Below are positions 9,300 to 62,422 of a stretch of 64,000 nt of DNA, piece by piece. This DNA is from Promethearchaeota archaeon (lineage in GTDB: Archaea; Asgardarchaeota; Lokiarchaeia; Sigyniarchaeales; SOKP01). The first letter of the stretch is position 1. The number at the start of each line of letters is the position of its first letter. Below the pieces are notes generated by a model. The model saw nothing but the letters and a program-made list of their open reading frames with translations, was not told the origin of the DNA and did not search any database. Position numbers and translations under genes: made by a program. Location: the NCBI GenBank assembly GCA_016840085.1, contig JAEOTA010000018.1, forward strand, positions 64,001 through 128,000, in the 5' to 3' direction.

Positions 9300-9656
9300 T
9301 TAAATAATTTCTTTTTTTTTTTTATTTTCTTTTATACTATCTAAACAGTCGACACATATCCAACACTTGCCACTAGGAACATAATCCATATCCTTTATAC
9401 TAGAACTACAAACAGCACATAAACATATTGAATGTGTTAAAGCTCTATATAACATGTATCTCTCTTCCCTGACAGCTTTGAACCTTTTCATTTGAGAATT
9501 AGTCAAATTTATCTTAGAAAGATAAATATTACATAAAGAAGTAAGACGATTATACTCGTTCTCTGTAAATATTAAAAACAACTTTCTAAGATTATCTCTT
9601 ACTTTTCTTAACTTAGGATCTCTTATAACAACTAATTTACTAAAAATTGTTTCCAT
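9300..9656 (-). CDS. Hypothetical protein with C-terminal Cys4 zinc finger
   Basis: CAVC...WICVDC. Confidence 0.7.
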   Translation of the reverse strand: METIFSKLVVIRDPKLRKVRDNLRKLFLIFTENEYNRLTSLCNIYLSKINLTNSQMKRFKAVREERYMLYRALTHSICLCAVCSSSIKDMDYVPSGKCWICVDCLDSIKENKKKKEII

Positions 9657-9808
9657 TCTCTTTTATTCCCTAATTCTTCTTCATTTACAATCTGAATAGG
9701 ATGGCCAGAATGTAATGAATCAAACATTTCCAATTTTTCTTTATTGATATAATTATCCTCAAGAATCGGTACATATTCATGACATTTAAAACATACTTTT
9801 AGCCTTAT
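9632..9808 (-). CDS. Small CxxC...HxxH zinc-finger protein, 58 aa, ATA start (not in ORF track)
   Basis: Manual translation (M)RLKVCFKCHEYVPILEDNYINKEKLEMFDSLHSGHPIQIVNEEELGNKREWKQFLVN; in-frame TAA directly before the ATA; GAAGTGA SD-like motif. Confidence 0.65.
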   Translation of the reverse strand: MRLKVCFKCHEYVPILEDNYINKEKLEMFDSLHSGHPIQIVNEEELGNKREWKQFLVN

Positions 9809-9972
9809 TTAAGTCACTTCCTTTCTTTATATTAATATTTGTACTCATGCTTATATATCGACACAGTTATAAAATAAATTTCCAAAAAGTAGTATGGAGA
9901 ATATATTAACACCATATCCTGATTTACTTAAATTTAATTTTTATTATTTACCTAAATTCTGACATAAAGAGA

Positions 9973-13340: not shown

Positions 13341-13873
13341 TTATTTGGGATTTATTAAATATTTATCAATAATTTTAATCATCATTTCTATTGTAGGTCT
13401 ATCTGTCTTATCTTTACCAATATATTTCCAAATAATTTTACCATCTTTATTAATTAAGAACTTACTAGGCACAGCTTGTTTTATCTTATAATCTAAGCCC
13501 GCAACAGGGGCAAACCAGTATGCATCATATTGTTTAGCAATTTTAGCTCCACGATCGGAAATAATATCAACATTAAACTCGTTATCTTCTTTGAATTTTG
13601 TCAAAAGTCTAGCACTATCGCTTGCTATCGATATTAACTTAATCTTTCGCTTGTTAAATTCAGAAATATGTTCCGTTAATAGTTTTAAATGTGCTTTGCA
13701 ATGACTTCACCAATTTCCTCTAAAAAAGTCGATTAGTACACCATTAAACTTTTTGAGAAGGTCATTAAGATTTATAGGATTATCGTATATATTTACAGTA
13801 TCTATCAAGGGAGCTTTAGTCTCTATATCTAATCTTTAGGTCTTGGAGGTTCTTCAGCATTCATTTTACTCAT
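13341..13873 (-). CDS. Peroxiredoxin-like (AhpC/TSA, thioredoxin fold) selenoprotein; Sec at TGA 13707-13709; apparent 1-nt frameshift near 13833
   Basis: Reading through TGA gives ...KAPLIDTVNIYDNPINLNDLLKKFNGVLIDFFRGNW-U-SHCKAHL...LISIASD...IISD...AVPSKFLINKDGKIIWKY..DRP; the ORF track shows only the C-terminal 87 aa. Confidence 0.85.
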
Positions 13874-19088: not shown

Positions 19089-19454
19089 TTAAGATGTTTT
19101 TATATCTTCTATACTCTCCAATATCACTTCTAATTGTTCGTCATCTAACGTTTTTCCAACAAAGGATTTCTCTAATATCATTCTTAACTCTGGAACGGAT
19201 TGCGGGTCTATGTTTACGATGTTAATTGCGTAGATTTCCTCAATTTCATAATCATTTATCAAAAATTTTATAATTTTTTTTGCTGTTCGAGCATCAATCT
19301 TTGCGAACTTGTTTACATAATTATACGTAATTTCTTGAAAGTGCGACATTCCCTCCTCAGAATCAATTTCTAGCATTTTTTCTTTTACATATTCCATAAT
19401 CTCCTTTACTTCTGGAATAGAAACTGTTCTCTCGTCTTTCTTTCTTCCTGACAT
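19089..19454 (-). CDS. rpo4: RNA polymerase subunit Rpo4 (F)
   Basis: VSIPEVKEI, YVNKFAK, AINIVNIDP...ELRMIL; operon context. Confidence 0.85.
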   Translation of the reverse strand: MSGRKKDERTVSIPEVKEIMEYVKEKMLEIDSEEGMSHFQEITYNYVNKFAKIDARTAKKIIKFLINDYEIEEIYAINIVNIDPQSVPELRMILEKSFVGKTLDDEQLEVILESIEDIKTS

Positions 19455-19475
19455 ATTTGTGCTACCTATTGAGAT

Positions 19476-19787
19476 TTATTCTTTATTTACAGAAATAGGA
19501 TTTAATCTTAAATGATCTTTCCCAATTATTAAGGTTTTTTTTGATCTCCCCAATTTAAGTTCCACCAAATAACAACGCCCTCTTTGACCTATAACTGTCC
19601 CTGTGCGACCATGATATCTGGAATGAGGCATTCCACGCACATGAACAGAGGGATCGGTAATTATATCTACTTTATCATTGATTTTGTAATCTATCAGATA
19701 TTTTTCAACTGAACCTAACCCTCTTTTGCGAACATTTTTCCTGTGCTTGTGTCTAGTCTTTTTTCTATACCCTTTATGGAGAGTAAT
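19476..19787 (-). CDS. rpl21e: Ribosomal protein eL21 (L21e), ATT start (not in ORF track)
   Basis: Manual translation (M)TLHKGYRKKTRHKHRKNVRKRGL...DKVDIITDPSVHVRGMPHSRYHGRTGTVIGQRGRCYLV...KTLIIGKDHL; lies between pus10 and rpo4. Confidence 0.92.
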   Translation of the reverse strand: MTLHKGYRKKTRHKHRKNVRKRGLGSVEKYLIDYKINDKVDIITDPSVHVRGMPHSRYHGRTGTVIGQRGRCYLVELKLGRSKKTLIIGKDHLRLNPISVNKE

Positions 19788-19879
19788 AATAATACACCAA
19801 ATATTTAGTTTAATAGAAGTATGAATAATAGTTTATTTATTTTTTGATTTTATATCTATGTAAATATCAAAAACAGAAC

Positions 19880-21244
19880 TTAAAGAAGGATTTTTAATAC
19901 ATCTAATTCTTTACATAATAAATCTGTTTTAAAGATTTCAGAAAATGATGGAGAAGTGCGTCCTTCATCACCATTAATGAGTTCTTTTATATAAGTGCCC
20001 CCTTGAGTTTCGATTGTAAATTCAAATAAATTCGACTTAAGATACTTTCCTTCAATTTTAAAAACAAATTTTTCTCTAATTCTATCACTACGACGATGAG
20101 ATACGCGATAAGGTGTTCTTTGTTTGATTTCTTGATTTTCAAATATTCGTTTCAGTTCATTTACTTTTTCTTCAAAAATCTCCTTAGATATCTTATCTTG
20201 AGTACTTACTAATGCTCTATAAATCTTTCTTATATTCTTTGATTCTGCTTTAAGTAAGATTACTTCTTTTTTATTGGTATATCTTAAATCATGAATTTTT
20301 ATTTTTTTTTTACTCTTTTTATTAATTTTTTTTTCACTTTTAACTAAATCAAGATTTCTGATTTTAGGATTTCTTAATTCTAAAATAAAAGGCCTCCCTG
20401 TACCCAACATTCTAACATCTATATCTTCTCTTCCAGCACCATGAAATTTAGAACTCGATGCTTTTGATTCTTTAAGGAATTCTGGACTAATTAACTCTTC
20501 CACACTCGTTAAATATTGTTTCCCCGTAAAATTACATAATTTACATCCGTTTCCCATACAATTTTTACAAAACCAATGAGTTTGGGGTATTCCTCGAATA
20601 AGTTTATTATATTTTCCAAATATGAAAAGAGATTTTAGTTTTAATTCTATATCAAATGAATCGAAACTCAGAGAAAAAATAATTAATATATCTGGATTGT
20701 TAAATTCAGGAGGCTTTTCAATTGAAATCATCAATTCCTTTCCTAAAACACGATTAAAATGACTCTTAAAAGATTCAGCTTCTAAAATATTGAATTCTGT
20801 TTTAAAATTATCTGCTTGATTTACTATTTGAGCTAGGGGTCTTGTACCAACCAAAAAGGTTTCAAATTCAATTTCTTTAAGCTTTTGTTTTGTTTTTTCA
20901 ATAAACTCATCAATATGTGAAAAAATATTATGACATAAATAACAAATAGGATTTAAATCATTCTTTTCATATTCAAATCCTTCGTTTTGTAACACTTTTT
21001 GAGCAGGTAAAAAATTCGCATTCTCAGCTAATAATTTCAAACTTTCCAATGCTTTTTCTTGTTCTGTTTCGTTATTAGATAAAAATTTTCTATGATTTTC
21101 CATAGTTAATGAGAGTAATAATGAACTACCTCTTTCTTGGTTCGTGGTATGAGACCCTAGAAGAGAAAACTGTCGACCTAAACACGCAGGACATATGAAG
21201 TATTTTTGGTAGATCTTTAAAACTTTGTCAAAAATCATGTTCAC
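19880..21244 (-). CDS. pus10: tRNA pseudouridine(54/55) synthase Pus10
   Basis: CPACLGRQF, GKYNKLIRGIPQTHW, FHGAGREDIDVRMLG.GRPF, QRTPYRVSHRR, GGTYIKELI.GD.GRT.PS. Confidence 0.95.
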   Translation of the reverse strand: MNMIFDKVLKIYQKYFICPACLGRQFSLLGSHTTNQERGSSLLLSLTMENHRKFLSNNETEQEKALESLKLLAENANFLPAQKVLQNEGFEYEKNDLNPICYLCHNIFSHIDEFIEKTKQKLKEIEFETFLVGTRPLAQIVNQADNFKTEFNILEAESFKSHFNRVLGKELMISIEKPPEFNNPDILIIFSLSFDSFDIELKLKSLFIFGKYNKLIRGIPQTHWFCKNCMGNGCKLCNFTGKQYLTSVEELISPEFLKESKASSSKFHGAGREDIDVRMLGTGRPFILELRNPKIRNLDLVKSEKKINKKSKKKIKIHDLRYTNKKEVILLKAESKNIRKIYRALVSTQDKISKEIFEEKVNELKRIFENQEIKQRTPYRVSHRRSDRIREKFVFKIEGKYLKSNLFEFTIETQGGTYIKELINGDEGRTSPSFSEIFKTDLLCKELDVLKILL

Positions 21245-42456: not shown

Positions 42457-44421
42457 TCACGAATTCCAAAAAGGATTTAGATTCTTAAATATAGCATCAG
42501 GTCTATCAGGGATTATTTCCAATTCTTTTCTTATCCACTCTGATATCCATTTATATTTTGTTTTAAATCTACTGTCCATAAAAATTATTGCTCCTTTATC
42601 AGCAATTTTTCTTATTGGTCTTCCGGAAGCTTGATTTGCTCGTTGAATAGCTGGATATAAATATGCAAAATTCCAGCCTTGTCTATTAAATACCTTGTCG
42701 TAATATTTTATTTTTGCCTCAACTCGAGGAGTTGGTAGATGATACGGGAAACCTGCTATTATAACAGAATTCATAAAATTCCCCGGATAGTCTTCTCCTT
42801 CTGAATTTCTCCCACCACAAACTCCTAATAAGACTGCACCTCCATTTGAAGCCATGTTTTTGAAGTCATCCACTAATAAAGCATTTTCAGAGGCTGACAA
42901 ACCAGATTCCTCAAAAAATAATTTTTTATTATTTTTTTCTATTACAAATTCTATCCCATTCCTTATGAGTCCTCTAAGAATTTGATAAGAAGCACAAAAA
43001 ATTCCAATATTTGCAGGAGTTGTACATATCACTTCATTAATTTTATCAATCATTTTTTTAAACATGATTGGTGTTCTATTAACTCTTTTAGTATTTACTC
43101 CTTCAGTTATAATAGCCTTAATATTTTTCTTACTAAATGGGGAATCTGCGATTATTCCTTTATAACTCTTTCCACAATCATTTAATCCCATTAAATTATT
43201 ATAAACATATGGATTAACAGTTCCAGAGAGATTTAAAGAGGTATAACCTCTTTTCAAGATGGGAATAACAATTTCTCTAGGATCCAATGCTACAATTTCA
43301 AGTGAGATTGATTTTCTTCCTTTAACTTCTTTAACATTATAACAGAAAAAATAGTTATCTAAGGAATATGTGTTCAACCATTTCAACCAAAATTCTGCCA
43401 AGTAACCAACAAAATCTCTTGAAATTTCACCATTTGCTAGTTTTTCCTCATGTATTGAAAGGCCAAAATCATTAAAATCTTCAATAAAATTCTTAAATCT
43501 GTTTAGATCATTAAAACCTAATTTTTTATAAATTATTTCTAAAAACTTATCAGGTTTAATTGCCTTTTCTTCAATTCTTAGATCTTCTTTTTGCGTGTTT
43601 AATTGATCTATTAATATTTTAGCAAAACTCTGCATTAGAATAGGAGATCTATACATTTCTAGATCTTTCAAACATAACCTTAATGAATATGGTGTAATTT
43701 TTTTTGAACTTACTTCTGTAGCAACGTCTATTACATTATGACATTCATCTATTACTAAAATACAACTTTGAAGTTCTTTACCAATAAATTCTAAAAAAGA
43801 TTCACGAATAAATGGATTAAAAATCCATTGATAATTGCATATAATAACTTTCATTTTCTCAAGTAAGAACTTACTTAAAAAATAAGGACAAAATTTTTTT
43901 TCCTTACAGAACATTATGAGTTCTTCGGCATCTATAGGTTTATTAAACAATTCTGGTGCAATTAATAAGGGATTTTCAGTTTGTCCTTTTTTTTTTAATA
44001 AGTTGATAAAATGTCTGCAACTCCTATTTTTCCGTAAATCGCTACAAACTGACATTGCTTCTCTTGGATTTAACTTAAGAGATAATAAAGTTTCATTTAG
44101 GCACATCTCATTTCTACCTCTTATCGAAAGCCCATTAATCTTAACTCCAAGATGGGCATCGTTTATTTTTTGTGAGATCTTTATCAATTCTTTGATTATC
44201 CGCCGATTTTGAGAATGTGTTCTGCACATATAAATAATTTTAAGATCTTTTTCAAAAGCTAAAGGTAGAAGTCCACAGAGAGCAATTATTGTCTTTCCTG
44301 TTCCATTAGGGGCTGATAATAAAGTGATCTTTTTTGATCTTGAACTCAATTCGATCTGCTTAGTAATATTCTCTTGATTTTCTCTGAATTGCTTGTATGG
44401 AAAAAAAGATAAATAATCTAT
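42457..44421 (-). CDS. xpd: XPD/Rad3/DinG-family Fe-S DNA helicase; ATA start restores the Q-motif
   Basis: FPYKQFRENQ upstream of the track start, APNGTGKT, RTHSQ, Fe-S Cys (MCLN, CSDL, SC, CPY), DECHN, SGT, GRNSEG.DY, QASGRPIR...DKG. Confidence 0.9.
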   Translation of the reverse strand: MDYLSFFPYKQFRENQENITKQIELSSRSKKITLLSAPNGTGKTIIALCGLLPLAFEKDLKIIYMCRTHSQNRRIIKELIKISQKINDAHLGVKINGLSIRGRNEMCLNETLLSLKLNPREAMSVCSDLRKNRSCRHFINLLKKKGQTENPLLIAPELFNKPIDAEELIMFCKEKKFCPYFLSKFLLEKMKVIICNYQWIFNPFIRESFLEFIGKELQSCILVIDECHNVIDVATEVSSKKITPYSLRLCLKDLEMYRSPILMQSFAKILIDQLNTQKEDLRIEEKAIKPDKFLEIIYKKLGFNDLNRFKNFIEDFNDFGLSIHEEKLANGEISRDFVGYLAEFWLKWLNTYSLDNYFFCYNVKEVKGRKSISLEIVALDPREIVIPILKRGYTSLNLSGTVNPYVYNNLMGLNDCGKSYKGIIADSPFSKKNIKAIITEGVNTKRVNRTPIMFKKMIDKINEVICTTPANIGIFCASYQILRGLIRNGIEFVIEKNNKKLFFEESGLSASENALLVDDFKNMASNGGAVLLGVCGGRNSEGEDYPGNFMNSVIIAGFPYHLPTPRVEAKIKYYDKVFNRQGWNFAYLYPAIQRANQASGRPIRKIADKGAIIFMDSRFKTKYKWISEWIRKELEIIPDRPDAIFKNLNPFWNS

Positions 44422-44519
44422 CCTAGTACACCAAATTCTAATATATAAAATTGATACGATTTTAACCCTTATATTACCATAGACTATAAAAATTTATTTA
44501 TTAAGAATAGGCAGTAAAG

Positions 44520-45956
44520 TTAATCATGTAATACAGGTTTTCTCGCAGCAAGAACAGCATCTAAACGTTTAACAGGCATGCGATAGGGGGCATTTTTTAA
44601 AAGTTCTGGATTATCTTTTGCTTCTTCTTTAATTTTATTCATTATTTCAACAAAAGAATCTAGAGATTTTTTTGATTCAGTTTCAGTAGGCTCTATCATT
44701 AAAGCACCTTGAACTATTAATGGAAAATAAATGGTTGGTGCGTATATTCCATAATCTAAAATACGTTTAGCAATATCTTCTGTAGTGATATCATTTGCCA
44801 TATCTCTATCTGAAAGTATAAATTCATGTTTACAGATTCTGTTGTATGGAAGATTATAATTCTGCTGTAATAAAACTCTTAAATAATTTGCATTTAAAAC
44901 CGCAATCTGACCAACTTTTTTCAGTCCGTCAGCGCCTAGTGCTAAAATATATGCATAAGCTCTTATAATTACTCCGAAATTGCCCCAAAATGCTTTAATT
45001 CTTCCAATTGATTTGTCATTGCTTTCTCGACATATTATCCCGTCCTTAGTTGAGATTAAAAAGGGTTCAGGAAGAAAATCAATTAATTCATTTACAACGC
45101 CAATAGGTCCAGATCCTGGTCCACCCCCACCATGTGGTGTAGAAAAAGTCTTATGTAGATTTAGATGAACAATATCAAATCCCATATCCTTAGGACGGCA
45201 TATTCCTAACATTGGATTTAGGTTTGCTCCATCATAATAACATAATCCACCATTATCATGTACAATTCGTGTGATCTCCTTTATTTGTCTATCAAAAACT
45301 CCTAAAGTATTAGGATTAGTAAGCATAATTCCAGCAACATCGCCTTCTAGCATAGCAAATTCCAATTGATCCAATGGAACCTCTCCATTTTCATCTGACT
45401 TTAATTCTATAATCGAGAATCCTGCCATTTTTGCAGAAGCAGGATTAGTGCCATGTGCAGAATCGGGAATTATTATTTTTCCTTTTTTGAGGTTTTTATT
45501 CTCAAAATACTTTTTTATAATTAATAATCCGACTAATTCTCCATGAGCTCCCGCTGCTGGTTGTAAAGTGAACCCTTCCATCCCAGTTATTTCTTCTAAT
45601 GATTCTGATAATCTATGCATAATTTCCAGAGCACCATGATTTTTTTCTTGTAATGGATGAATTTGGGAAAATTCTGGCAAACGGGCAATAATTTCATTAA
45701 TTTTTGGATTATATTTCATAGTGCAGGATCCTAAGGGATAAATTCCTGTATCAACACCATAATTTTTTTGGCTTAAGTTGATGAAATGACGAACTATCTC
45801 TACTTCTGGAACATTAGGAATGGAAATGTCTTTCCTTTGAAGCGTTTTAGGAATAATTTCGTCCAGATTAATGGTCCTAATATCCATAGCTGGTATAAAA
45901 TTGCATAGTTCATTCTCATTTCCTTTTTCAAAAATTGACGTTGGTTTTGAGTTTAT
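44520..45956 (-). CDS. gcvPB: Glycine dehydrogenase (decarboxylating) subunit 2
   Basis: YPLGSCTMKYNP, QPAAGAHGE, SAHGTNPASA, HLNLHKTFSTPHGGGGPG, IEPTETE; N-terminal SIFEKG needs the ATA start at 45956. Confidence 0.95.
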   Translation of the reverse strand: MNSKPTSIFEKGNENELCNFIPAMDIRTINLDEIIPKTLQRKDISIPNVPEVEIVRHFINLSQKNYGVDTGIYPLGSCTMKYNPKINEIIARLPEFSQIHPLQEKNHGALEIMHRLSESLEEITGMEGFTLQPAAGAHGELVGLLIIKKYFENKNLKKGKIIIPDSAHGTNPASAKMAGFSIIELKSDENGEVPLDQLEFAMLEGDVAGIMLTNPNTLGVFDRQIKEITRIVHDNGGLCYYDGANLNPMLGICRPKDMGFDIVHLNLHKTFSTPHGGGGPGSGPIGVVNELIDFLPEPFLISTKDGIICRESNDKSIGRIKAFWGNFGVIIRAYAYILALGADGLKKVGQIAVLNANYLRVLLQQNYNLPYNRICKHEFILSDRDMANDITTEDIAKRILDYGIYAPTIYFPLIVQGALMIEPTETESKKSLDSFVEIMNKIKEEAKDNPELLKNAPYRMPVKRLDAVLAARKPVLHD

Positions 45957-47299
45957 ATTCTTTCACCATCCTCGTTATTTTTTAAAGCTATTTTAGCTGC
46001 CTTTATAAAATTATCTATAGATTTTTTTGAATTCATTTCAGTGACGCAAACTAATGCAGTACCTTTCATTTCGGGGTAAAATTTTGTAATTTTCAGAGGT
46101 GGAAGTAAATTCATCTTATAGCAATGCTCAATGAAAGCATCTAAATTAGGACATTGGATTAAAAATTCATTGTACGTTGGTTTAACATTTAAAATTTTAT
46201 AACCTGGAACTTTACTAAGCTCTCTTTTTACGTAATTGGATTTTTGAATATTCTGAATCGCAACTTTCCGAAGACCAGTTCTACCTAAAGCTAAAAGGTA
46301 CGTCAGTGCTGCTAACGAGCATAATGCTTGGTTAGTACAGATATTCGAAGATGCTTTCTCTCGTCGAATATGTTGTTCACGTGCTTGTAATGTTAAAAGA
46401 AATCCTTCTTTTTCACCGTTAATTTCTTTAGTCTTTCCTATCAATCTTCCGGGAATTTTTCTCAAAAATTTCTGTTTTGTAGCAAAAATTCCTAAACCAG
46501 GCCCACCGAAAGATGGATTTATTCCAAAAGATTGCCCTTCTGCTACAAAAATATCTATATTTGTTTCTCCTGGAGGTTTCAAAATTCCTAGACATGTAGG
46601 ATCAGTCATGACTTGAATTAATAAACAGTTAGGGAACTTTTGCTTTACATCCTTTGCTAACTGTGAAATATCATTAATATCTCCGAAAAAATTAGGATTT
46701 TGAAATAGTACTGCTGCATCATCATTATCTAATTTATTTAATAGATTATCTTCTGTTGCTGATTTTATTAAAATATTTTGACCCCAACAATATGTTTTTA
46801 CAACCTCTAAATATTCTGGGTGAATTCCTTCAAGCATCATTATAGATTTTTTGTTAGTAATGATTGTAGCCATAATTGCAGCTTCTGCAAGAGCCGTGGA
46901 TCCATCATACATACTTGCATTGGCTACATCCATTTGAGTAAGTCGTGAAATAATTGTTTGATATTCATAAATAGCTTGTAAATATCCCTGACTTGCTTCA
47001 GCTTGATATGGTGTATAAGATGTATAAAATTCCGATCTAGAAATAACAAAATCTACTAATGAAGGAATATAATGATAATAACATCCTGCTCCTAAAAAAG
47101 CACTTGAATATAATTTATTTTTATTTGCTATTTCTTCTAATTTTCGTAAAAGATCTGGTTCTGAAAGAGATGAAGGTAAATCTAACTTTTCCAAATGCAA
47201 ATCTTTTGGAATGTCGTGAAATAAATCATCTAATTTACTAACACCTATTATTTTTAACATTTCTTTTACACTTAAATCATCATGAGGTACAAAATCCAT
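45953..47299 (-). CDS. gcvPA: Glycine dehydrogenase (decarboxylating) subunit 1
   Basis: FLGAG.Y.HYIP, EFYTSYTPYQAEASQG, NASMYDG, LQAREQHIRREKASSNICTNQ; GAGGTG SD before ATG 47299. Confidence 0.95.
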   Translation of the reverse strand: MDFVPHDDLSVKEMLKIIGVSKLDDLFHDIPKDLHLEKLDLPSSLSEPDLLRKLEEIANKNKLYSSAFLGAGCYYHYIPSLVDFVISRSEFYTSYTPYQAEASQGYLQAIYEYQTIISRLTQMDVANASMYDGSTALAEAAIMATIITNKKSIMMLEGIHPEYLEVVKTYCWGQNILIKSATEDNLLNKLDNDDAAVLFQNPNFFGDINDISQLAKDVKQKFPNCLLIQVMTDPTCLGILKPPGETNIDIFVAEGQSFGINPSFGGPGLGIFATKQKFLRKIPGRLIGKTKEINGEKEGFLLTLQAREQHIRREKASSNICTNQALCSLAALTYLLALGRTGLRKVAIQNIQKSNYVKRELSKVPGYKILNVKPTYNEFLIQCPNLDAFIEHCYKMNLLPPLKITKFYPEMKGTALVCVTEMNSKKSIDNFIKAAKIALKNNEDGERI

Positions 47300-47793: not shown

Positions 47794-48891
47794 TTACACA
47801 TTTCTATAAAAAGGCGTTTGTACGATGATTCCTCTTAAAAGTTTGTTTCTAATTTCAATTTCCAATTCTGTACCAACTTCCTTATATTGAGTTTTTATTA
47901 GACCTAAACCAATAGTCTTCTCTAGAGTTGGTGAATAACCACCAGAAGTTACATACCCAATTTCATTTTCATCTTTAAAAATTTTATAGTTTTCTCTTAT
48001 AATACCCTTATCTATTAAGTTTAGTCCAACTAATGTTCTTTCTGTTCCTTCTGATTTCTGTTTCATTAATACTTCTTTACCAAGATAATCTATTGCTTCT
48101 TTTGGTTTGGCTAACCAATTAAGCCCAGCTTCAATAGGAGTAATTGAATCACTAATCTCATGACCATATAATGAATAACATGCCTCTAATCTCAAGGAGT
48201 CTCTTGCACCTAATCCAGCAGGAGTTGCACCTATTTCTATTAAAATGTTCCAGATTTTCACAGCATATTTATTCTCAAGTGAAAGTTCAAACCCACGTTC
48301 CCCTGTGTATCCTGTTCTTGTAATAAAAATAGGTATGTTATTTAACTTACAATGTGCAAAATAGAATCTATTTATCTTTGCTAAATCAACATCTACTAAT
48401 GGTTGTAAGAGAGTATCGCTTTCTGGACCCTGAAAGGCTAACCTAGATCGTTCATTTGAAAGGTTTGATATCTTTACATCTTGATTCTTAATATGTTTAT
48501 TTAACCATTGCTGATCCTTTTCAATATTAACAGCATTCACAATCATTCTAAAAAAGTCTTCATTTTCCTCATAGTAAACTAAGTCATCAACAACTGTACC
48601 ATTCTCATAGCACATACAAGAATATTGCCCTTTTGATTTCTCTAATAAATTCAAATCATTTATCATTATATATTGAAGAAAAGGGATAATATCTCTACCT
48701 TTTAGAATAAATTCTCCCATATGTGAGATATCAAACACTCCAGCTTTAGATCTAACTGCGTTATGCTCCTTTATGATACTCTCGTATTGTACTGGCATAA
48801 AAAAGTTAGCAAACTCAACCATTCTTGCGCCAAGTTTTATATGTTCCTCATAAAGTGGAGTTTTTTTCAATATCTTGTGTTCTTCATTCAT
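47794..48891 (-). CDS. gcvT: Aminomethyltransferase (T protein)
   Basis: KTPLY..H, FDISHMGE, RTGYTGE.GFE, GLGARDSLRLEA. Confidence 0.96.
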   Translation of the reverse strand: MNEEHKILKKTPLYEEHIKLGARMVEFANFFMPVQYESIIKEHNAVRSKAGVFDISHMGEFILKGRDIIPFLQYIMINDLNLLEKSKGQYSCMCYENGTVVDDLVYYEENEDFFRMIVNAVNIEKDQQWLNKHIKNQDVKISNLSNERSRLAFQGPESDTLLQPLVDVDLAKINRFYFAHCKLNNIPIFITRTGYTGERGFELSLENKYAVKIWNILIEIGATPAGLGARDSLRLEACYSLYGHEISDSITPIEAGLNWLAKPKEAIDYLGKEVLMKQKSEGTERTLVGLNLIDKGIIRENYKIFKDENEIGYVTSGGYSPTLEKTIGLGLIKTQYKEVGTELEIEIRNKLLRGIIVQTPFYRNV

Positions 48892-51614: not shown

Positions 51615-51658
51615 ATTATTTCTGTTTGTGTGAAACTTCACACTATAATAGAAATAAT
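51615..51658. promoter_or_regulatory. Imperfect palindrome in the divergent promoter region (candidate operator or 5' UTR hairpin)
   Basis: ATTATTTCT...GTGTGAA-AC-TTCACAC...AGAAATAAT. Confidence 0.4.
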
Positions 51659-51765
51659 AGAACACAAAATATAAAGTTTAAACTTTCCTTTTAACAGACT
51701 AAAAATATAAGATAATTGCTTTTTTCATTATATTCAAAAAAATCAAATAAATTATATAGTTAAAA

Positions 51766-53031
51766 ATGAATAAAGAAATAAAGGAAGCGTATGATCTAGC
51801 TTCTAAAAAGTATGAAAATCTTGGAATTAATACAGAAAAAATATTGGAACACCTAAAGGAAATTCCAATCTCAATTCATGCTTGGCAGGGTGATGATGTT
51901 GGAGGTTTTGAAAGACCTAATGCAGAACTAACCGGAGGAGGAATTATAGCTACAGGAAATTATTTCGGAAAAGCAAGAAATATACAAGAACTTAAGTTAG
52001 ACTTAGAAAAAGCACTTTCTTTAATTCCAGGGAATCATCGCATAAACTTACATTCTTTTCATGGTGATTTTGGAGGAAAATTTGTTGATCGTAATCAATA
52101 TAAGATTGAGTATTTTCACTCTTGGATTGACTGGGCTGATGAAAAAGAAGTAAAATTAGATCTTAATAGTACTCTCTTTTCGCATCCGAAAGCCGATGAT
52201 GGATTTACTTTGAGTAGTAAAGTAAAAGAAATTCGTCAATTCTGGATGGAACATGTTTGTAGATGTCGAGAAATAAGTGCTGAAATTGGAAGACAATTAA
52301 AAAGCCCTTGTATTCATAATATCTGGATACCTGACGGTTTAAAAGACATCCCTATCGATAGAAAGGGATATAGAGAATTATTAAAAGACTCTTTAGATGA
52401 GATTCTAAGAGATAAATATCCTTCTTCTATAATGAAAGATTCTCTTGAGGGCAAGCTTTTTGGCATTGGTAGTGAAGCGTTTGTAGTTGGAAGCAATGAA
52501 TTCTATTTATGTTATGCTATCGCCAACCAAAAAATGTTAACTCTTGATACGGGACATTTTCATCCCACTGAATCTGTAGGAGATAAAATATCTGCAATTC
52601 TCCCATTTATCCCAGAATTAATGCTTCATATAAGCCGTGGTGTAAGATGGGACAGCGATCATGTTGTAATTTTGAGTGATGATCTAATTCAACTAGCTGA
52701 AGAAATAGTAAAAAGTCAGGCTATGGATAAAATACATATAGCATTAGATTATTTTGACGCATCAATTAATCGTATTAGTGCCTGGGTGATCGGCACACGA
52801 GCAGTTCAAAAAAGCCTATTATATGCTCTGCTTCAACCATGGGATATGTTAAGAGAGTATGAAGAGAATGGACAATATTTTCAAAGACTTGCCTTTTTAG
52901 AAGAATTAAAAACACTTCCATTTGGTGCTGTATGGGACTTTTTTTGTTTAAAAAATGATGTTCCAGTAGGATATTCTTGGATTAAAGAAATCGAGAAATA
53001 TGAAATGACCGTATTACGAGAGAGAAGTTAA
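51766..53031 (+). CDS. rhaA: L-rhamnose isomerase
   Basis: ISIHAWQGDDVGGFE, TGNY.GKAR, NIWIPDG.KD, KLFGIGSE..VVGSNEFY, LDTGHFHPTE, HISRGVRWDSDHV, LDYFDASINR. Confidence 0.93.
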   Translation: MNKEIKEAYDLASKKYENLGINTEKILEHLKEIPISIHAWQGDDVGGFERPNAELTGGGIIATGNYFGKARNIQELKLDLEKALSLIPGNHRINLHSFHGDFGGKFVDRNQYKIEYFHSWIDWADEKEVKLDLNSTLFSHPKADDGFTLSSKVKEIRQFWMEHVCRCREISAEIGRQLKSPCIHNIWIPDGLKDIPIDRKGYRELLKDSLDEILRDKYPSSIMKDSLEGKLFGIGSEAFVVGSNEFYLCYAIANQKMLTLDTGHFHPTESVGDKISAILPFIPELMLHISRGVRWDSDHVVILSDDLIQLAEEIVKSQAMDKIHIALDYFDASINRISAWVIGTRAVQKSLLYALLQPWDMLREYEENGQYFQRLAFLEELKTLPFGAVWDFFCLKNDVPVGYSWIKEIEKYEMTVLRERS

Positions 53032-61089: not shown

Positions 61090-61288
61090 TGAAAAATTAC
61101 TAATTTTTCAGTGTTTTAATAGATATATTAAACGAAATAGAAAAAGAAATTAATTCTTTTAAGATTTTATTTTTTCAAACTAATATAATAAAGGTATTAA
61201 TATTTATTATTAGATAAGAATTTAAGATAAAAATATTATAAATAAATTAACTAATAGTAAAATTATAAAAATAATTAGTTGATTTAAT

Positions 61289-62422
61289 ATTCGACGTAGA
61301 AGAGTAGGTTCAGAAAATACTGAAAGTAAGTTCATTGAAAAGTTTAGAGCAGTTATTGATGACCATACATCTCTTTCGATATATAATAAAAAAAAAAGAT
61401 CTGTTTGTGTTATTCGAAAAGATTTAGCCAAATCTTATGAAATTGAAGTAGATGCTTCTGAAGCTCCTGTGTTGAATAAAATATTAAGTGATCCAGAACC
61501 ATATGAGATTTCTATTGCTGATTTGAAAATCTTAGAGGAAGAAATATTCCCTATAAATGAAGCTTTACAGAAAGTGTTTGGATCAGAAAAAGACCTGAAA
61601 TTAAATGCGATAAAATTAGCTATTGGGAGTACTTATACAGATTATGTTACCATTGGAGAGAATGATTTAATTAGATTCGATGTTAAGCCTACCCTTAATG
61701 GGTTAAATGAATTTATTAAAGAAAATAAAGAGAGTATTTTAGGATTTTTAGATTGTGAGTATATTAGCGAAGAGGGTAATGTTATATATTTGAATTGTAG
61801 CAAAAAAAATGTGTCTGAAAATATCTACTCAATAAAGTTATTAATTCTGGCATCTATGCAACAAAGAGGATTTTTCCTTCAACAAGAGCATAAATATTAT
61901 GGGCTCCAACTCTATATTATAATTGAATCTAGAAAGCCTAATGAAAATAAATTGTTGGAATTTTTAAAAGAACTTAATATTGATTGGGAAGTTATATTTT
62001 TCAGAAGAAAACTAGCGATCCATGATTGGACAGAGATAGAGTGTGAAAGAAATAGTGAAAATCTAAAAAGTTTTCTCCGTGGAAAATATGATACATTAAA
62101 TTATTTTGACGTAAACAATATAATTCGTCTAATAGTGAAGAACCAATTACCTTTTAAAGTAGCTGATAAAATGGCATCTCTTTTATATAAAATGAAAAGT
62201 GAAAGAGCAAGTCGCTTTCATGATAGAAAATATAATGAAATCGCTTATCAGGATGATCAGTTACAACAAGATGAATATTCAGTAACACTAAAAAAAGCAG
62301 AAGTTGCCGCAGCTGCTAAACTCGCATGTGCTTATTTAGGAATACATAATAAAATTAATTTTGATAGAGATATTTCTATAGATGAAATTCTAAAATATCA
62401 AGAAGAATTATCAAATATCTAG
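61289..62422 (+). CDS. Hypothetical protein, probable ATT start at 61289
   Basis: Frame is open 60 codons upstream of the track start (61469), back to TGA-TTT-AAT-ATT. Confidence 0.6.
   Translation: MRRRRVGSENTESKFIEKFRAVIDDHTSLSIYNKKKRSVCVIRKDLAKSYEIEVDASEAPVLNKILSDPEPYEISIADLKILEEEIFPINEALQKVFGSEKDLKLNAIKLAIGSTYTDYVTIGENDLIRFDVKPTLNGLNEFIKENKESILGFLDCEYISEEGNVIYLNCSKKNVSENIYSIKLLILASMQQRGFFLQQEHKYYGLQLYIIIESRKPNENKLLEFLKELNIDWEVIFFRRKLAIHDWTEIECERNSENLKSFLRGKYDTLNYFDVNNIIRLIVKNQLPFKVADKMASLLYKMKSERASRFHDRKYNEIAYQDDQLQQDEYSVTLKKAEVAAAAKLACAYLGIHNKINFDRDISIDEILKYQEELSNI

Follow-up and report, generated by a model that had tools for sequence, protein, structure and literature searches.

Five genes in the window, the whole 64,000 nucleotide stretch of Promethearchaeota archaeon DNA that was analysed, almost certainly begin at ATT or ATA behind a ribosome-binding site. 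Judged by the sequence comparisons described below, about 3-7% of the genes in this genome and in its genus almost certainly start at AUU, AUA, AUC or CUG. The window has a G+C content of 28.8% and lies on contig C4 of an assembly of 4.68 Mb, which is 98.8% complete with a contamination of 7.6%. NCBI names close homologues of its aIF1 and eL21 as Promethearchaeota or Lokiarchaeota, which identifies a Loki-type Asgard archaeon. A sequence-only reading of the window had pointed out five genes with ATA or ATT behind an SD-like motif and without a canonical start; all five contexts are exactly as it described them, and in none of the five is there an in-frame ATG, GTG or TTG after the upstream stop and before the proposed start.

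The five genes and their orthologues

The gene rpl21e for ribosomal protein eL21 (19476..19787, minus strand) is present in a single copy and encodes 103 aa from its ATT start codon (19785..19787, minus strand). This codon is the third of three tandem ATT codons, the register among them being set by orthologues with ATG or TTG at that position. The GGTG core of its Shine-Dalgarno sequence (SD; 19795..19798, minus strand) is located 7 nt upstream of the ATT. GGTG or a near variant is found at the same place in nearly all orthologues of the genus, which often also contain an in-frame stop just upstream of the start. The first canonical codon is the GTG at codon 50. The helicase gene xpd (42457..44421, minus strand) encodes 654 aa from ATA, with a GGTG SD (44429..44432, minus strand) 7 nt upstream. 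The gene gcvPB for glycine dehydrogenase subunit 2 (44520..45956, minus strand) encodes 478 aa from an ATA which overlaps the TAA stop of gcvPA (45953-45955) as ATAA; its GGTGA SD (45963..45967, minus strand) lies 6 nt upstream of the ATA, within the end of gcvPA. A CxxC/HxxH protein of 58 aa (9632..9808, minus strand) starts at ATA with an in-frame TAA directly upstream and an SD-like GAAGTGA site (9814..9820, minus strand) at a distance of 5 nt. It had been labelled a Zn-finger gene; its start stands, and the label holds at motif level only, as no Pfam or NCBIfam match was found. The fifth gene (61289..62422, plus strand, hereafter the 61289 gene) encodes a conserved protein of 377 aa from ATT. 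Its SD-like site AGTTGA (61277..61282, plus strand), 6 nt upstream, is weak, pairs via UGA(U), and is kept as GTTGAT or GCTGAT in orthologues.

The next canonical codon follows after 49 codons in eL21, 24 in xpd, 23 in gcvPB, 25 in the Zn gene and 60 in the 61289 gene. The Pfam L21e match begins at residue 3 of eL21 and the ResIII/DEAD matches of XPD begin at residues 11-15, in both cases within the stretch lost by a canonical start. Systematic mis-annotation, which had been predicted, was found in the protein collection, where the entries for this contig are truncated to 317 aa (61289 gene, from GTG), 455 aa (gcvPB) and 630 aa (xpd, from TTG).

The 16S rRNA in the assembly comprises only the last ~130 bases, which include the 3' tail GGAUCACCUCCU. 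This tail is complementary to GGUGA-type SD sequences, in agreement with the pairing proposed for GGTGA; the sequence with which it pairs is AGGAGGUGAUC. GGTG, GGAG and similar words are most frequent 5-11 nt upstream of ATG starts, and the SD of the near-cognate starts can pair with the 16S tail and is spaced as at canonical starts, as had been suggested. Pairing of -4.4 kcal/mol or lower was found at 44% of confident starts versus 8.5% of the background, and SD-like pairing occurs at ~44-60% of genes genome-wide. For this genus, such a frequency is at odds with the view in the literature that Lokiarchaea seldom have SDs; according to published statements, SDs are not prevalent in Lokiarchaea and archaea use AUG, GUG and UUG (PMC7531240, PMC12993045).

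The codon aligned with Met1 of eL21 in 23 genomes of the genus is ATA in 10, ATT in 5, ATC in 5, TTG in 2, CTG in 1 and ATG in none; in seven sister-family genomes it is ATG (4) or TTG (3). The start of xpd in the genus is ATA in 19 genomes, ATT in 1 and ATG in 1, and in the sole ATG-started orthologue GCTG replaces GGTG, so that the SD is lost. The start of gcvPB is ATG in 12 orthologues, GTG in 7 and ATA in 4, and that of the Zn gene, among paralogues and orthologues, is ATG in 5 and ATA in 4. All 25 genus loci of the 61289 gene have ATT, preceded by a stop at a distance of 2-3 codons. The start of this gene is based on this invariance and on the adjacent upstream stop, the N-termini of the sister-family orthologues being different; the 60 residues that would be dropped by the GTG start contain invariant residues and predicted strands. 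The near-cognate codons of eL21, xpd, gcvPB and the Zn gene align with canonical start codons of orthologues. The start positions of the five genes vary among start-type codons and avoid TTA, GTT, GTA and CTT, which are common replacements of internal Ile codons. Sequencing error is excluded because the variation stays within start-type codons across orthologues. The trait is common to more than 20 other assemblies per gene (21-25), and a separately assembled public contig, which may come from the source sample, equals window positions 19300-20100 without difference. The five ATT/ATA sites are very probably real translation starts. An ACG swap at gene 18942 was only apparent and corresponds to an offset ATG.

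The protein of the 61289 gene is found order-wide, in 40 of 41 genomes, and was assigned to no family by Pfam, NCBIfam, Atlas or Foldseek. Its N-terminal part is beta-rich, and its predicted C-terminal domain resembles cyclin-box/TFIIB folds (best Z 9.8, rmsd 2.1, 87 residues). A further gene of the window (13341-13873, minus strand) is peroxiredoxin-like, with weak NCBIfam matches to SelL-related and thiol peroxidase models. It is a probable selenoprotein gene, to judge from a W-*-S-H-C (UxxC-like) motif that contains an in-frame TGA, and a GGTGA over the TGA misleads the start model described below. Upstream, just one frame has an ATG (MSKMNAEEPPRPK), and it is shifted by one base against the main frame near 13835; the split 5' end may be due to a non-canonical start, a frameshift or an indel in the assembly.

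Genome-wide extent and affected core genes

Start sites of 3555 ORFs were modeled with a mixture of intergenic and coding backgrounds, an SD matrix, spacing, and free start-codon weights, which in the EM procedure were begun flat over 58 non-canonical codons. The weight of SD-led starts was 1514 for ATG, 323 for TTG, 133 for ATT, 87 for GTG, 63 for ATA, 38 for ATC and 18 for CTG, and at most 7 for any further codon. The class without SD contained only scatter, without enrichment of ATT, ATA or ATC (ATH); this, like the conservation of the SDs, makes leaderless initiation appear less likely. According to the model, ATT, ATA, ATC and CTG starts account for ~7% of genes and occur almost only behind an SD. 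At a posterior of 0.8 there are 126 near-cognate calls (3.5%), of which 90 lack a canonical codon upstream; re-starting at a canonical codon would cost a median of 27 residues. In a model-free test on 406 ORFs without a canonical codon in the first 20 codons, an SD followed by ATH was found in frame in 63 cases versus 14 and 8 out of frame, and control codons had no in-frame excess, which gives a floor of ~50 genes. The ~5 of ~55 genes estimated from the window correspond to a rate near the top of the range of 3-7% found genome-wide. Relaxed start-codon selection, as put forward by the sequence-only reading, is thus supported by the orthologue codons, by the start-site model and by the model-free test.

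In another genome of the genus, of which 1.2 Mb was sampled, the near-cognate rate is 8.5%. Two sister-family genomes with a canonical aIF1 start gave 1.8% and 4.4% in 400 kb samples; these rates are near noise and are to be taken as rough, since the noise floor of fixed-motif fits at 400 kb is 2.6-6%. The genome G038 has canonical starts of both eL21 and aIF1 and a low ATH rate. Near-cognate starts are mostly common to both genus genomes, with ATG/near-cognate pair swaps that lack a nearby canonical codon in only 4 and 2 cases.

An orthologue could be aligned for 15 of the high-confidence calls. In 14 of them it has a start-type codon at the call, and at least one of the 15 is probably false (an Ile inside an SDR protein). 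Conservation steps from 0.24 upstream to 0.66 downstream of near-cognate calls, compared with 0.21 and 0.70 at canonical starts. The residue following ATH starts is Ser in 24%, Lys in 11% and Pro in 10%, although the model has no N-terminal term; the corresponding values are 19% Ser and 12% Lys after ATG starts, and 7% Ser after internal ATH. The ratio ATT:ATA:ATC is 54:31:15 at starts versus 52:34:13 in internal Ile use. This equality suggests that there is hardly any inspection of position 3 and that the majority of sites are close to neutral. Three SD-led calls concern GTA, which has two mismatches to AUG; they are located on C83 and C69 (two sites), and one faces CTG in an orthologue.

The core genes with near-cognate starts whose identity was confirmed with Pfam are eL21, eL34, eS26 (ATT), eL8 (ATT), uL16 (ATC), uS10 (ATA) and aIF1. 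uL1 probably starts at CTG, a GTG being situated within its SD. At least six ribosomal proteins have near-cognate starts, and most ribosomal proteins have ATG. The genes for eL21, eL34, eS26 and aIF1 are single copy and would lose about half of their length with the next canonical codon, which in uS10, eL8 and rpoN costs only 4-11 residues. Several TFB-like genes have near-cognate starts as well, and the 144 listed near-cognate calls have unrelated functions. uL16 is represented by an intact ATC-started copy and a truncated, ATG-started paralogue of 92 aa (C3:34198, plus strand; C75:23.8-24.0k, minus strand). An eS6-like frame on C3 (minus strand, strand position ~40299) opens right after two stops and has no obvious start, possibly owing to a frameshift or an assembly error.

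Initiation factors and proposed mechanism

Genes for aIF1, two aIF1A, aIF2-beta, aIF2-gamma and uS9 are present, and all except aIF1 start at ATG. aIF1 starts at ATT in all 21 readable genomes of the genus. An in-frame stop precedes this ATT by 1-3 codons, the Zn knuckle follows it immediately, and a canonical codon does not appear before codon 59. None of the eight internal all-Ile columns of aIF1 has a single codon, and with these columns as control the ATT is conserved beyond neutral expectation. Outside the genus the start is ATA in two sister-family genera and canonical in others. A phylum-wide search detected the gene in 142 of 151 genomes. An out-of-frame TAA (ATT AAA) was rejected as the constraint on the ATT, since the sole ORF available in that frame begins at GTG, is five codons long and lacks a usable SD; no such overlap exists in the 61289 gene.

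The initiator tRNA is ordinary (CAT anticodon, A1-T72, GGG/CCC anticodon stem) in a tRNA set that was incompletely recovered. Its gene on C22 (minus strand, ~51652-51786) contains two introns, in the anticodon loop and at the variable/T-arm junction, and is located ~1 kb upstream of aIF2-beta. A variant with a changed anticodon or with loss of the identity elements A1-U72 and three G-C pairs was not found in this gene. Of the altered aIF1/aIF2 or initiator tRNA that had been proposed, a changed tRNA sequence is thus not borne out, and aIF1 is intact yet starts at an invariant ATT. Internal ATA codons face Ile in 66.7% and Met in 2.9% of cases in the genus comparison, with similar values against the sister family, and a mitochondrial-type reading of ATA as Met is ruled out by this result. 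Two full-length aIF1A paralogues are found (C60:57.7k, plus strand; C43:42.6-42.8k, minus strand), one of which may be foreign in view of the contamination.

The 16S tail pairs with the GGUG(A)-type SD, and both the pairing and the spacing are seen in the sequence; the 30S subunit would thereby be held such that the codon 5-8 nt downstream occupies the P site. There the ordinary Met-tRNAi (CAU) would accept one mismatch, either at position 3 (AUU, AUA, AUC) or at position 1 (UUG, GUG, CUG), and Met would remain the first residue. Low proofreading by aIF1 would permit the mismatch, and the AUU start of aIF1 itself would provide an infC-like negative feedback that keeps proofreading at a permissive level. 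aIF1 makes the 30S complex of S. solfataricus reject AUU in vitro, and both IF3 and eIF1 autoregulate via weak starts (PMC4705826). Under low stringency, A+T-biased drift from ATG to ATH would occur where the SD compensates; the drift pattern is observed, and low stringency is its presumed cause. Most ATH starts would then be near-neutral and a few, those of aIF1 and the 61289 gene, selected. The strength of the SD increases from ATG to TTG/GTG to ATH (medians -3.7, -5.6 and -7.4 kcal/mol), an order that is partly circular for model-called starts; a homology-defined set has the same direction for ATG versus ATH. Translational coupling was rejected as a general cause, an upstream stop within 20 nt being present at 18% of ATH starts versus 20% of SD-led ATG starts.

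The full mechanism, consisting of SD-positioned Met-tRNAi initiation, lax proofreading by aIF1 and self-limitation of aIF1, is considered somewhat probable. The link between the aIF1 start and the genome-wide rate covers two genomes per side, with kinship as a factor. The feedback would steady the stringency but leaves the permissive set point unexplained, for which a cis change in the ribosome or in the factors may be needed.

In a rather unlikely alternative, the starts are real, the laxity is built into a divergent aIF1, aIF2, 16S P site or a modification of the tRNAi anticodon, and all ATH starts, that of aIF1 among them, are a by-product of drift without feedback. The equal use of ATT, ATA and ATC at starts and inside genes fits this alternative, as do unusual features of the factors. 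The loop-1 residue Trp38 of the Loki aIF1 occupies a position that is Tyr/Phe in 68% and Trp in 12% of 150 distant representatives, and Phe47 for Gly and Ala62 for Leu are further departures at conserved positions. Tyr32 of P. abyssi aIF1, which matches Trp38, stabilises the 30S:mRNA complex (PMC6237735). aIF2-gamma (C60, minus strand, ~48059-48310) has a long N-terminal extension of ~115 residues with a helix-hairpin-helix-like part and a KP-rich linker. However, Trp38 and Phe47 also occur in families f2 and f4 and Ala62 in f2, and the sampled f2 genomes have lower near-cognate rates; Trp is common to all three sampled families and was rejected as a sufficient cause. The sequence of tRNAi is standard, and pure drift leaves the fixation of ATT in aIF1 (21/21) and in the 61289 gene (25/25) unexplained, while every internal Ile column varies.

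A second alternative, to which little probability is given, holds that the ATH starts form a deliberate regulon in which a stringency switch (e.g. starvation or slow growth) acts on ribosomal proteins, TFB paralogues and metabolic genes. The near-cognate starts of at least six ribosomal proteins, of aIF1 and of several TFB-like genes point in this direction, as do the lack of ATG in eL21 of 23 genomes and the ATA in 19 of 21 xpd genes. They are opposed by the ATG starts of most ribosomal proteins, by the unrelated functions of the listed calls and by the free exchange of ATA with ATG and GTG in gcvPB and the Zn gene; in eL21 the absence of ATG is near the expectation of A+T-biased drift among kin. 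The deliberate control layer that had been suggested is therefore supported for aIF1 and the 61289 gene only, and not genome-wide, drift being indicated in eL21, gcvPB and the Zn gene. That there is no near-cognate initiation at all, but sequencing error, pseudogenes, downstream canonical starts, ATA read as Met or RNA editing to AUG, is very improbable: uS10, eL8 and rpoN would lose little, but the pattern is common to more than 20 independent assemblies per gene, the single-copy genes eL21, eL34, eS26 and aIF1 would lose about half their length, internal ATA faces Ile, and no single editing chemistry can make AUG from the ATA, ATT, ATC, TTG and CTG found at the eL21 start.

Known systems and significance

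Among known systems, the bacterial infC gene is similar: it codes for a start-codon fidelity factor and has a conserved, SD-led AUU start. This start and the autoregulation of infC were reported by Butler et al. 1987 (cited after PMC4705826). The factor is IF3 there and aIF1, a member of the SUI1 family, here, where the feedback is putative and deduced from the conserved start. In bacteria only a few genes have AUU starts, whereas ATH and CTG serve 3-7% of genes here. The autoregulation of eukaryotic eIF1 involves a homologous factor whose mRNA likewise has a conserved weak start (PMC4705826; PMC6237735), but that start is an AUG reached by scanning and set in a poor Kozak context, unlike the SD-positioned near-cognate codon of aIF1. 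In the Asgard archaea, the N-terminus of atubA of Kariarchaeaceae also needs an ATT at a plausible distance from a ribosome-binding site (PMC13394414); that report concerns one gene of another Asgard class, calls the case 'rare' and makes no genome-wide or mechanistic claim. Ribo-seq of Haloferax placed archaeal ribosomes at near-cognate codons in ~30% of 160 putative alternative sites (PMC7261190). Those sites are secondary and were set aside as possible false positives, whereas here the near-cognate codons are the sole starts of essential single-copy genes.

NCBI translation table 11 contains the same set of alternative initiators (ATT, ATC, ATA and CTG), which are treated as rare exceptions rescued by homology, and other pipelines truncate such genes: 53 of 120 aIF1 matches lack the N-terminal Zn knuckle, and three genes of the window are shortened. 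NCBI annotates some orthologues of the genus in full, namely eL21 P0287 at ATC and aIF1 P0004 at ATT. In mitochondria, whose genomes are A+T-rich, ATT, ATA and ATC serve as starts. The present system differs by the lack of reassignment of ATA to Met, by its dependence on an SD and by its occurrence in a 4.7 Mb cellular genome with a fidelity factor. Near-cognate initiation as such is known, but no description was found of an archaeal lineage in which several percent of genes, essential ribosomal proteins and aIF1 among them, have only a near-cognate start. The searchable literature, in which subscription journals are mostly outside coverage, yielded no genome-wide or lineage-wide report of non-canonical starts in Asgard or other archaea. 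It is possible, and proposed only tentatively, that this lineage has both the most permissive start rule described for a cellular prokaryote (up to ~7% ATH/CTG in addition to TTG/GTG, and a few GTA) and the first archaeal aIF1 autoregulatory loop.

Standard gene callers would shorten or miss 100-280 proteins per genome, and such truncation has consequences for phylogenies built on marker genes, for estimates of completeness and for structural studies of Asgard proteins. Start-codon stringency is a main difference in initiation between prokaryotes and eukaryotes, and the Asgard archaea stand at that transition. A lineage that keeps aIF1, aIF1A and aIF2 and yet appears to start essential genes at AUU, AUA and AUC offers a natural test of aIF1 in vivo and a candidate archaeal loop. 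If the proposed loop is real, the feedback logic would be common to the three domains (IF3 with AUU, aIF1 with AUU, eIF1 with a poor context) and would be found in relatives of the ancestor of eukaryotes.
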